From NCBI GenBank assembly GCA_035221665.1, contig CM069135.1:26474001-26538000 (forward strand): a stretch of DNA of 64,000 nt. The letters are read 5' to 3'. This DNA comes from Okamejei kenojei (Eukaryota). Below are positions 12,186 through 52,800 of the stretch, in pieces; within the stretch, counting starts at the first letter, position 1, and every line of letters begins with the position of its first letter. Below the pieces are notes generated by a model. It did no database searches, was not told where the DNA came from, and saw only the letters and a program-made list of their open reading frames with translations. The translations under genes were made by a program, and so were the position numbers.

Positions 12186-13859
12186 TACTTGTCATTATCA
12201 TCAGTTCACTCGTGTGTCAGACGACATTCAGCCAGTGCCACATCTGTGCCTCTACAGAGATCGTCCGCAGTGCATTCCTCTCCGCCGCAATTCAGTAGGT
12301 GGGCAATTGTCTGTACCTCTCCAAAGTTGCACATGTCAGAGTCCGAGAAGCCCCAGTTCTTCACTCCAGTACGGAAGCGGGTTAGGTCTTTTCAGGTAGT
12401 ATAAGGCAGGTGGTGTCCTGGTGCTGTCTGTTGTTTGGTTTTGGTGCCTGGCACGGTTGGATCTAGTTCCACGAAGCTGTTTCCGACTCTTCAAGCGTTT
12501 CTTGGCATGTTGGTGATTGTGCAAAGGGCGACTGCAGCTGCCCGATCACCTCTTCAGGATGGTTCGTCGATGCCAGCCGGCTCGTACAGATGTTCAACCT
12601 TTGTCGGCTTCAGGCATCCTGTGGTTTTCCTGCAGGCAGTGTTCAATGCAGAGTCCCCTTGCGTGCATGTTTAGAGCGGCTCCAGAGGGCTTGCATATTC
12701 TGCCAATGAGAAACTGAGCGCCAGGGCTGCTGTGTGGATTGTTGTTGGGTCACTTCCAAATGAGCTGTTTGCCAATTTTTTTGATGACATTGTTCCGGGT
12801 GTTGACCACTGCCTTGGTTTTCTCAACATGTTGGCGATATGATAACGTGCGATCGAGGACCACACCTAGGTACTTTGGGGCTTTGCAGTGTTCCAACAGG
12901 ACATCATTCCATCGCACCTGCAGTGGACGTTTTGCATCCCGGTTCCGGAGGTGGAAAGAAGGCGCTTTGCACTTTTGTTGGGTTTGGGCGCAGGGAGATC
13001 TGTTGGTGGTATGTTGTCATATTCTGCAGAGTGGCCTCTAGCACGGTCTCAATCTGGCTGAAGTCTGAGGATTGCGTTGTGATGCATAAGTCATCGGCAT
13101 ACAGAAACAACCTAGTTTTCGGGGTGATGGGTTGGTCATTGGTGTATATATTGAACAACGTTGGGGCAAGAACGTTCTTTTGGTATGGTATTTTGGTGTC
13201 TCCAACGGCTGTTCTGACCATTCAGGCATATGAAGAAGCATTGTCATGATGAACTGGACAAGATGAGAGTCCTGCAGTGTTTGTTGCAGTTTAGCTTTCA
13301 TGGTACGGTGGTTTGCAGTGTCATATGCTGTGGACAAGTCTACAAATACTGCACCTGTGATCAGCTTCCACTCAAAGACATCTTCAGTGTGCTGAGTGAG
13401 GTTCAGCAGTTGTCCTGTTGTTGACTTTCCGTGGAGGAACCCAGCCTGTTCAGGTATCAAGACATTGTCTATATCCAGCGTGATGCAGTTCTGTATGCAT
13501 CTTCCCATCAGTGTCTATGGGTGGTACAGCAGGGATATTGGCCAGTAGCTGCTGGGAAGATTGGCATCTTTGCCTGGTTTTGGTAAAGCAACAACCTTCG
13601 ATTTCCGCCAGACTGGTGGAATGGAGTTGGTTGCTATGCAGATGTTAAACATCTCCAGGAGCACCAGTTGTTGCCATCAGCAACTTTTGGGATGATGGTT
13701 TCTTACCACTACTCTTGCCGTTTAGCAACAACTGGTGGGCAACCTGGTTAGCGGTCATATTTCCATATGGTTTACTGTGGGTGGGGTCATTACTGAGACG
13801 TTTCAGTGTCGCCCATGCCTTCCTGCTGCTGTGGAATAGGCCTTTGTTTCTATTAGCTC

Positions 13860-19563: not shown

Positions 19564-20864
19564 CGCTGGTTTCCAACCTCCAGCTGCTGCCAAAAATTGT
19601 GCCGCGAAGATTTGAAATTGGGCCGCGAGGGTGACCCAAAATTTTATTTAAGGTATTATGGAATATCCCAGCAAAAGTTGTTCAAATGACATGCAGCGAT
19701 GCAGCTGTTGTGCATGTTTCATCGAGCAAGGGCCAGGTGGGTAGATTGGTTGCCGGCTTTCGATATTGTAACAATGTTCATTGTGAATAGAATAGAATAG
19801 AATGCCATTTATTGTCATTCAAACAGACATGGTTCGAACATAATTTTGTCCCTGCAGTCACAACATCAAAAAAAAACAAGACGCACAATTAACACAATTT
19901 TCATAAACATCCATCACAGTGAATCATCAAACACCTCCTTCCTCACTGTGATGGAAGGCAAAAGTCTTGTCTCTTCCCTGTTCTTTATTCTTCTCCCGCG
20001 GTCAAGCAGTCCAACTGCTGCGTCAAGTCGAGCGGGGATCCCGATGTTGGGCGATAGTAAGTCCCGCGGCTGTTAAGGCCACGCTGGGCGATGTAAGGCC
20101 CTGCTCCGGGACTTGATGTTAGAGTCGCCGGTGGGCAGTCCCGCGGCCGTTAAAGCCACGTCGGGTGATGTAAGGCCCCGCTCCGGGTCGTTTTAACCCC
20201 GTGATTCGGGCGAGAGAAGTTGCCGTTGCGGGAGCTCCGAAAAGCGGTCTCCCACCAGGGATACTGCGAGCTCCCGATGTTACCGTCCACGGCGCCTGCT
20301 GCCGGAGCCGCCGAAACTCCGAAGTCGGGTCGCAGCTGCGCGCCACCACAGCGCTCCACGCTCCGAAGTCGGGTCGCAGCTGCGCGCCACCACAGCGCTC
20401 CACGCTCCGAAGTCGGCCAGCTCCGCGATGGTGAGTCTGCAGGTTGTTTCCGGTTGGAGGCCGCCGTCTCCACGATGTTAGGCCCAACGACAACGGGGAC
20501 CCGACAGGGAAAAGGTCTGGTCCCCGTACAGGGAAGAAATTAAAAAGTTTAAAGAGATTAAAATTCTAAAAAATAAAACCAAAAACATACTCCTAACGGG
20601 ACAAAACGAAAGAAAAGACGGACGGACTGCAGTCAAGCCGCTGCCACACCGATGAGTCTTTTATTTCATGTTTTAATTTTGTTTTCAATTAATTTATTTA
20701 ATTTTAATTCATGATTAATAAGCTGTAAAGCTAAACTAAAATGTTTTGAAAATTCAAATCATTTTAACAGTATTATCAATTCATTTATCATGCTATCTTA
20801 AAATAAGTAAGTCCAAATGTTTGATCAATTTTCGGCAATGGATGAGAAAGGTTGGGAACCACTA
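19564..20864. mobile_element. hAT (Charlie-like) non-autonomous element carrying a nested retroposon
   Basis: Ends CGCTGGTTTCCAACCT and AGGTTGGGAACCACTA. 8-bp flanks GTCTAAAT (19556-19563) and GACTAAAT (20865-20872). Confidence 0.65.
19787..20655 (-). mobile_element. GC-rich non-autonomous retroposon with internal tandem repeats and (ATTCT)n tail
   Basis: (GAATA)n at 19786-19803 next to TTTATTGTCATT. About 44-bp tandem units at 20317-20416. 3' portion shared with 11770-12185. Confidence 0.7.
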
Positions 20865-21114
20865 GACTAAATAGTGACCAAAATAAAAACTTAACTTGAA
20901 TTTAAATAGTAACTCTCACAACCTAAGGATATCTGAAAACACTTTTCAGCTCGAAGGGCCGAATGGCCTCCTCCTGCACCTATTTTCTATGTTTCTATGA
21001 TGGAATTATTATCTCAGAGGAGGTTTCAAGTGCTCAGTGACCATGATCTTAAAAGGATAAATGTAATCTTGAGGCTGGAGGCCAGGAAAGAGTCTCAATG
21101 AAAGACAAATGCTT

Positions 21115-51120: not shown

Positions 51121-51461
51121 AGCTCAGCGGGTCAGGCAGCATCTCTGGAGAACATAGATAGGTGATGGTAGACAAAAGTGCTGGAGAAACTCAGCGGGTG
51201 CAGCAGCATCTATGGAGCGAAGGAAATAGGCAATGTTTCGGGCCGAAACCCTTCTTCAGACTGATGGAGGGTGGGGGGGGGGGGGGGGGGGAGAAGAAAG
51301 GAAAAAGGAGGAGGAGCCCAAGGCCTGAGGGAGAGCTAGAAGGGGAGGAAGATAGGTGATGTTTTGGGTTGGGACCCTTCTTCAGAATGATTGGGTCCCA
51401 ATTCACCACATTGCCTCTACAGGTGCTGCCTGACCATTTGAGTTCCTCCAGCACTTTGTGT
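51121..51461. mobile_element. Old inverted pLTR pair containing a younger Penelope 3' end (51168-51349, 12-bp TSD)
   Basis: AGATAGGTGATG at 51156-51167 and 51350-51361. Confidence 0.8.
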
Positions 51462-51520
51462 GGGGGTGGGAGATTGCAACCCTCATGTGGTCCGTCGCCC
51501 CCGTTTCAACTAATGCAATC
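51462..51520 (+). ncRNA. Minimal HDV-like self-cleaving ribozyme motif
   Basis: P1 GGGGGUGG/UCGCCCCC, P2 GAUUGCA/UGCAAUC, P3 ACC/GGU, 7-nt L3 CUCAUGU, P1.1 AU/GU, J4/2 CUAA. Confidence 0.75.
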
Positions 51521-51607
51521 AACCTGGCGTGCACAATCAAATAAGATCAAATAGAACAAGTTGTCCTACAACTTTAGGCTGCGCATGCAATACGCAAGAA
51601 GAAGAGA
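51462..51607 (+). mobile_element. 146-bp SINE-like retroposon with HDV-like ribozyme head, 3' hairpin and (AAG)n tail, 12-bp TSD
   Basis: AGCACTTTGTGT at 51450-51461 and 51608-51619. Hairpin AAGTTGT-CCT-ACAACTT. Ends ATACGCAAGAAGAAGAGA. Confidence 0.85.
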
Positions 51608-52800
51608 AGCACTTTGTGTTTTACTTGAGAGAGAGGTTTGCTGACAGAAAGACTGCGCCAATGGGGCATACAGCTGGGTATTTGTAAAGTACATTCAATT
51701 GCGGACGAAAAAAGTATCTGATCTATGTTTATTTGTCTCCACAACCGGATTCTGACACAATAGCAGTGATTGTACGGAAAACAAAATGTCACACCCATCA
51801 GCTGGAAGTGAACTATGGGACAACAATTGAACCAAGGCAATTGTCGTCATGTTTTCCAAAAGAAAGGAAATCCCAAGGGGTAAAATTCACCAGAGTGGCA
51901 TTTGCAAATCATTACTTAAACAAGACCAGCCACAACTAAAGAGACTAAACTATCTGACAGTGCAATATTTATATTTCTGTACTGACTTATGCCAAAACAA
52001 AAGTGTAGGGTCAATCCTTGTGAAACAGAGTATGGGAAATGTCTGTTGCACAATTTAACCTGGGTCAGACAGAGGGTGACTCACAGAAATCTGTATCTCA
52101 TTGAATCTCGTTAACATTACAACAGCTGAGCATGTTGTGTGGCACAGTTGTGTTTTCCAAAGAATAATTTAGGATAAAAATATCCTGCAATAAGTTTAAA
52201 AAAATCTACACATTTAAATCTGAGTACCGGCAAATTATTAACATAAAGCACATAGATATGAATAAGTTCAATTCAATGCCAAATTATTATTTTTGTACCA
52301 TTTTCACACTGCAGACCATTAGGTTTCAAGAGATTGTAGCCAGCAGAAACCCAGACATCTTTGATTAATTTTAAATCGTGGCAGTATTAAGATTGCTATC
52401 ATGCTTGTTTGAGAGTGCATCTGAGTGGGTCTTGCACCAACGCTCAATTTCCTTGCCGTACAATATGGACGTACATCACTCCCACTACATCCTCTTGCTC
52501 AAAGGCTGAATTCCAGCCTCGATAAATCACATAATCTAAAGAGTTAATCATGATCCAATTTAGCTTCCAACCTAAACCATTTTGGAGAGCAAGTTAATTA
52601 TTTTATAACCGAGTTTGTGAAGATGTAATTCCTGACATCCCTTCAATAGCCTGGCTCCAATTTCGAGGTTATTACCTCCCCCATCCCACCCCCTCCCACC
52701 CACAGATCAGGTTCAAATGTTTTCCCTCCAGAGGAAGTGGTTTCTCTCGGTTCCATCAACTTTTAATCCCCTCTGCAAAGGAGAATAATAATATTGATAT

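Follow-up and report, generated by a model that had tools for sequence, protein, structure and literature searches.

An insert with HDV-like and LINE-like ends

The 64,000-nucleotide window analyzed here contains a second repeat, itself recurrent in the window, whose end harbors a 146-bp insert bounded by an exact 12-bp target-site duplication (TSD) that extends on neither side (Table 1). The initial annotation had described a retroposon of this length made of a minimal HDV-like ribozyme and a LINE-type tail, and re-reading of the letters bore out both the length and the boundaries. The nested stems that it had proposed stand as well: P1 (51462-51469/51495-51502) pairs at 8/8 positions, two of them G.U, P2 (51472-51478/51514-51520) pairs at 7/7, and P3 is ACC/GGT around a 7-nt loop, while C51510, within CTAA, remains the candidate catalytic C and the 7-bp hairpin further downstream exists. 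The three extra nucleotides (CCG) reported before the P1 3′ strand are present, separating it from P3, but compared with the family the insertion at this point amounts to 4 nt and is accompanied by an extra 5′ G. The window copy also carries a U20C change at 51482 that had gone unflagged.

Owing to the 4-nt insertion and U20C, the predicted ribozyme of this copy is probably impaired, as had been suspected, and the insert is a decayed family member. Its 3 to 4 extra nucleotides mean that it does not have the 7-bp P1 directly after P3, and it fails a strict HDV descriptor; in the CPEB3 ribozyme, the U20C mutant has lost the Mg-dependent G25.U20 signal (PMC4836649). An HDV search, suggested at the outset as a check and run here with Rfam, gave no match for the window copy or for L007, and plain minimum-free-energy folding of the window copy, a method that excludes pseudoknots, was no better than shuffles (z 0.25).

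Table 1. Parts of the insert in the window (positions of the whole stretch)
Feature	Position	Strand	Basis or remark
Left TSD, 12 bp	51450..51461	+	Identical to 51608-51619
Predicted HDV-like ribozyme fold, P4-less; 59 nt here vs 54 nt in typical copies	51462..51520	+	Stems, family columns, covariation
P1 5′ strand; family G1 = 51463, one extra G in window copy	51462..51469	+	
P2 5′ strand	51472..51478	+	Stem reading
P3 and 7-nt L3; 51482 = C vs T in 29/30 sampled copies (U20C)	51479..51491	+	
P1 3′ strand with 4-nt insertion vs family	51492..51502	+	Family comparison
J1/4 (P1.1 G), 5-nt loop replacing P4, candidate catalytic C51510, J4/2	51503..51513	+	C in 30/30 sampled copies
P2 3′ strand	51514..51520	+	Stem reading
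End-to-end pairing, 5′ arm; 5 nt past ribozyme	51526..51534	+	Pairing analysis
Remainder of K-derived 5′ part, to deletion breakpoint	51535..51547	+	Comparison with K
Junction filler, 13 nt; provides 5′ arm of 7-bp hairpin	51548..51560	+	Resembles local duplication
7-bp hairpin	51558-51564/51568-51574		
K-derived 3′ end, terminal ATACGC	51561..51595	+	40 nt 97.5% in L278; 45 nt 91% in L277
Last codons and stop of parent ORF; stop at 51575-51577	within 51561..51595	+	
End-to-end pairing, 3′ arm	51581-51589	+	Within K-derived 3′ end
(AAG)n tail	51596..51607	+	Same tail on K
Right TSD	51608..51619	+	Identical to left TSD

The short-element family and LINE family K

The insert belongs to a family of elements without an ORF and with a typical length of ~139 bp. 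A DNA search of the source genome (G000, 2.76 Gb) returned 2,335 candidates, 40 of which were scored (91 to 92% over near-full length). Genome-wide, a 26-nt pattern from the ribozyme core had 9,132 exact matches and a 20-nt tail pattern had 8,197, the reversed control giving 0 in each case. The copy number is at least 9,132; the overlap of the matches listed for the first 18 Mb of C1 (41/100 core matches, 94 tail matches) leads to an estimate of about 20,000 to 21,000, which is rough because the sampled stretch is a copy-rich chromosome end. At least 24 public runs, spanning 10 studies and 7 organisms, also contain near-identical sequence, as do a metagenome run and a sample without a label.

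Copies are dispersed and occur on both strands. Their 5′ ends stack at the first base of P1, which is reached by 29/30 tail-anchored copies, and 25/30 core-anchored copies open with the same 7 nt. There is no variable extension 5′ of P1, the 30 nt upstream being unrelated (mean identity 0.27; 26/30 copies parsed), and TSDs were detected automatically in 19/30 copies. The thousands of exact matches against none in the reversed controls, the TSDs, and the sharp 5′ limit support a real retroposon family. A widespread subfamily with a P3 mismatch (T29C), suggested by 6/30 copies in the chromosome-end sample, was dropped after a genome-wide comparison (383 versus 9,132 matches). In the first 7 Mb of G000:C1 (L103-L132), copies seem to lie closer together and to carry more T-to-C changes than is average for the genome.

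The absence of pol III boxes noted earlier holds, in that no exact A or B box is found, there being a single B-like word with one mismatch at nt ~80, and a tRNA search found none in or near the insert. The short element therefore lacks the tRNA, 7SL, or 5S head and the A and B boxes of a classical pol III SINE; its head is the 5′ end of a LINE. The autonomous-type LINE with the same two ends, whose existence the initial annotation had anticipated, is a Vingi-type family of ~3.1 kb with a single ORF, here called K, which came to light when P0093 (domains PF03372/PF14529 and PF00078), a relative from public data, served as protein query. The first ~79 and last ~45 nt are common to K and the short element. 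Nucleotides 1 to 77 match four K copies starting at G1 at 88 to 92%, the segment at 51462..51520 having the same sequence as the K 5′ ends from which it derives, and the last 40 to 45 nt match the K 3′ end at 88 to 98%. The stop codon of the K ORF falls inside the shared 3′ stretch, and K also carries the (AAG)n tail.

In one K copy (G000:C5:39647928-39651020), the two ends lie within 3.08 kb, complete except for the first 9 nt and flanked by an 11-bp TSD, and the EN-RT frame is co-linear with P0093 at 34 to 48%. The family is represented by at least 40 3′ ends at 90 to 92% to L278 and by 44 matches to the 5′ region. Twenty of these 44 5′ loci were fetched; 15 begin within ribozyme nt 1 to 13, with 4 at G1 and 2 at G2, and reading of the 20 loci revealed no shared sequence upstream of G1. 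No intact ORF was seen among the K copies examined.

Because it shares both ends with a single LINE, the short element is an internally deleted LINE and not a classical SINE. By comparison of the ends it is a derivative of K; the initial view of a SINE is not borne out, and neither is an independently gained ribozyme head. The 13-nt filler at the junction may have been born by local duplication. The 7-bp hairpin to which it contributes is specific to the short element and absent from the parent tail, for which reason we rejected this hairpin as the 3′ recognition stem of the LINE. Other parents were considered and discarded: Vingi-type families A to J (H shares only the last 17 nt) and the candidates from a PF14529 search, which were Nimb-like (with RNase H) and CR1-like and had no shared ends in 30/30 loci and 12/12 longer stretches. 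A guessed junction pattern gave 3 matches, two of which were read and are ordinary short copies; GTDB and viral scans yielded no usable full-length element, and no relatives of the parent protein were found in viral contigs.

Two RT motifs, taken by us to be Vingi-type markers, have 164 and 189 matches in G000 and led to about ten Vingi-type families, all of which end in a CACG/TACG/CTCG-like word followed by (AAG)n or a similar short repeat. The K RT stands at 53% to P0093 versus 32% and 30% for a Nimb-like and a CR1-like element, respectively. No RNase H was found in P0093 or in the C-terminal part of family A, and K gave one weak match only, located before the RT and containing a stop. K fits a Vingi-type LINE, a label that rests on architecture and these motifs. 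Its one ORF is compact and comprises an APE endonuclease and an RT, the Vingi architecture as defined in PMC13708176.

At least 11 distinct Vingi-type LINE families coexist in G000. A member of one of them, family B, is present in the window itself (12229-13807, minus strand) as a 5′-truncated, decayed copy at 84 to 89% to other copies. Family H (L256, L258, L422) is young, with ~3.2-kb copies 98 to 99% identical and flanked by TSDs; it has a canonical HDV-like ribozyme with P4, its last 17 nt are the same as in the short element, and it is a possible cross-mobilizer. In many K copies (L306, L309, L311, L313, L315, L318) the 5′ segment is inverted against the 3′ segment in a twin-priming-like arrangement, and several of them have their junction on or close to G1. 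L310 (G000:C12:5534200-5535030) is a second internally deleted K copy, of ~650 bp and with a damaged 5′ end, and L299 and L319 are short elements with TSDs inserted within copies of their own parent LINE. Outside the Vingi type, L091 is a Nimb/I-like LINE that looks intact and has ORF1 as well as an EN-RT-RNase H frame of 1,276 codons. L399-L411 are Vingi-like LINE fragments in prokaryotic MAG records, most simply read as eukaryotic contamination.

Covarying fold and pairing between the ends

The predicted fold of K spans 54 nt and comprises a 7-bp P1 opening with G.U, a 2-nt J1/2, a 7-bp P2, a 3-bp P3, and a 7-nt L3; its core has U20 and G25 in L3, C22-G37, and 5 nt at the P4 site, followed by C-N-A-A. 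The same scaffold, with different stems and 16 to 40 nt in the P4 region, is found in families H, J, and B and in two metagenome elements. The stems covary between LINE families: 77/77 cells were paired across P1, P3, and P1.1 over seven rows, with two-sided change at 6/11 pairs, 0/500 shuffles equal and slid controls at 38 to 51%, in a comparison of these three elements whose rows, three of them near-duplicates, were picked after the motif had been seen. Two-sided covariation is found between families; within the short family, changes are one-sided only. The strict descriptor matched upstream of the ORF in 2/79 metagenome loci and in families K, H, and J, against 0 matches in five shuffles of 265 kb. 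A relaxed descriptor failed on 7/13 family 5′ ends (decayed or bulged copies). HDV-like folds were seen, some by eye alone, at the 5′ ends of eight families (A, B, D, G, H, J, K, N).

Typical short copies resemble K in having a 7-bp P1 that opens with G1.U and follows directly after P3. Among 30 sampled copies, T20 is present in 29 and G25 in 27, and the J4/2 region has the candidate catalytic C in 30/30 followed by A in 29/30 and A in 29/30; every pair and core base is kept in 10/30 tail-picked copies. One exact 54-nt ribozyme variant occurs 330 times. In four public runs, the family variants that reach ≥5% affect P1 (U.G/U-A), the loop, and the variable J4/2 base. Against Rfam RF02682 (gathering cut-off 44), K scored 17.5 bits (E 4.6) and H 31.6 bits (E 1.8e-4), both below threshold, and the two align end to end with the model. 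The comparative data support a predicted HDV-type double pseudoknot in K and the short family, which would cleave 5′ of G1; minimal ribozymes without P4 cleave in vitro (PMC10879173).

A second structural feature links the two termini, in that bases ~5 nt after P2 complement bases just before the terminal motif. In ten Vingi-type families, with the two ends taken from different copies in most of them, cognate pairing averaged -20.1 kcal/mol versus -9.6 ± 3.6 kcal/mol for non-cognate ends. The cognate pairing was best in 9/10 rows and 9/10 columns, and 0/100,000 permutations were as good. Among 720 assignments, the cognate one ranked first for the six first-seen families (K, H, J, A, G, and metagenome M), for which the pairing windows were fixed after looking. 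It was also the best of 24 permutations, with the same windows, for the four families read after the rule had been set (B, C, D, and N), where 0, 57, 1, and 8 of 1000 shuffles, respectively, were as good. The pairing is accordingly marginal in C; it is not significant in G (270/1000) and occurs in a shifted register in A, and the K arm contains a palindrome, 2/99 internal K windows scoring at least as well. In 8/10 families, pairing starts 3 to 7 nt after P2 and ends beside the terminal motif. Both arms are kept in the short element, 25/29 parsed copies (of 30) pairing at 8 or 9 of 9 positions in a count in which the 3′ arm was preset by the search pattern.

This complementarity could be a functionless by-product of fold-back or template switching in replication, much as the junction filler created a hairpin absent from the parent, and the result for family G would agree with this. 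We regard such an origin as improbable, if not negligibly so: the pairing is found again and again in 10 families whose sequences at these sites are unrelated, its start and end are similarly placed in 8 of them, and it held in the four families for which the 5′ ends were read only once the rule had been fixed. The end pairing may instead act in recognition or in completing full-length insertions.

Origin of the short family and its place among known elements

We propose, with a probability of roughly 0.7, that the short family is a non-autonomous retroposon that arose by internal deletion of the Vingi-type LINE K, keeping the three cis-acting parts that the LINE RNA would require, namely the ribozyme, the end helix, and the 3′ terminus with its tail. 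This best accounts for what is observed: the ends shared with K, the TSDs, the sharp 5′ limit, the covarying fold, and the complementarity of the two ends. A transcript would arise by read-through or from an internal promoter, and the minimal HDV-like ribozyme would cut it in front of G1, thereby fixing the 5′ end. The 5′ and 3′ regions would join by a short helix, and the K protein, which the shared ends suggest copies the short element in trans, would use the 3′ terminus and (AAG)n for target-primed reverse transcription at a nick, the insertion leaving TSDs of about 9 to 15 bp.

With the same origin, the 5′ end might depend chiefly on a pol II promoter located internally, in the first ~77 nt, the ribozyme being a back-up or only weakly active after loss of P4. 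The Pr77 sequence of L1Tc/NARTc is promoter and ribozyme both (PMC3383444), and Kojima states that pol II very likely transcribes bipartite LINEs (PMC5786205); the dispersal of copies on both strands agrees with this, and the sharp limit at G1 could reflect a +1 start no less than a cut. Covariation of stems whose sequence changes completely between families is, however, nothing that a DNA promoter requires, and the catalytic C, G25, and C22-G37 are kept; we consider this scenario improbable. That the fold is a non-catalytic module (for 5′-end protection, protein binding, or an IRES-like role) that descends from a formerly active ribozyme, with cleavage lost in the P4-less K form, is very improbable: IRES and protein-binding roles have also been ascribed to the HDV folds of R2 and L1Tc (PMC6765202), some well-folded SIDER ribozymes are inactive (PMC4035085), and K has just 5 nt at the P4 site, but ribozymes lacking P4 do cleave, as mentioned above (PMC10879173), and all core residues are kept in K and most short copies.

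As an internally deleted K derivative with a predicted ribozyme head, the short family resembles NARTc, RIME, and SIDER, ribozyme-headed two-ended derivatives that share their first ~77 nt (HDV-like ribozyme) and last ~30 nt with the trypanosomatid L1Tc/ingi LINE (PMC3383444, PMC4035085). Unlike NARTc (263 nt), it is ~139 nt long, resides in an animal host in ~20,000 copies, and has an (AAG)n tail and a P4-less predicted ribozyme; unlike L1Tc/ingi-clade LINEs, its parent is without RNase H. Activity is demonstrated for the trypanosomatid elements; in the short family it is predicted. The R2 SIDEs are likewise ribozyme-headed, ORF-less, and copied in trans (PMC3414825, PMC6765202). R2 is rDNA specific, its endonuclease is restriction-like, and its ribozyme is larger, while the short family is dispersed and has an APE parent. 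Among vertebrate Vingi LINEs, internally deleted derivatives of Vingi-1_EE are known, and these and SINE2-1_ACar (from Vingi-2_ACar) are bipartite derivatives like the short family, although SINE2-1_ACar has a tRNA head (PMC5786205).

The predicted ribozyme shares the P4-less double-pseudoknot core of minimal HDV-like/theta ribozymes of the drz-Mtgn-1 type. Nearly 99% of these are in tailed phages, often beside tRNAs, in a survey whose eukaryotes were human, mouse, and protists (PMC10879173). The K fold, in contrast, has no phage location or adjacent tRNA and heads a eukaryotic retroelement. With the CPEB3 and F. prausnitzii ribozymes it has in common a 7-bp P1 with G1.U36, U20/G25, and a single C22-G37 P1.1 (PMC4836649), the numbering being the same to position 38 (PMC4836649; RF02682 alignments). 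Both of these have P4, which K lacks, and CPEB3 is single-copy and intronic.

In the accessible portions of the published literature, including PMC13708176, PMC3747384, and PMC5753468, we found no report of the short family or the end pairing; Vingi ribozymes or the short family may already be described in Ruminski 2011, Kojima 2011, Webb 2009, supplements, Repbase, Dfam, or patents. PMC5786205 omits Vingi from the ribozyme-bearing clades and leaves unexplained the bias of two-ended derivatives toward a few LINE clades. Two-ended LINE derivatives are a known class; new are a predicted P4-less ribozyme at such copy number and clade-wide end pairing.

We tentatively put forward, at somewhat less than even odds, that Vingi-type LINEs carry an undescribed RNA module (HDV ribozyme, end helix, and tail) sufficient for mobilization, of which the short family would be the minimal natural form, seeding several thousand intact and active P4-less ribozymes in an animal genome. 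If true, this three-part module would explain why the Vingi clade spawns two-ended non-autonomous derivatives. The end pairing may explain how stripped-down elements are copied, offering a directly testable answer for Vingi. Vingi-1 serves RNA-only gene-insertion platforms in which the donors carry both UTRs (PMC13708176), so that a natural minimal donor of 139 nt, like a helix between the UTRs, bears on donor design. An HDV ribozyme that lacks P4 and has a clear role in a eukaryote would broaden a group known almost only from phages, and should about one third of the ~20,000 copies still be able to cleave, intronic copies in sense orientation could influence host transcripts.
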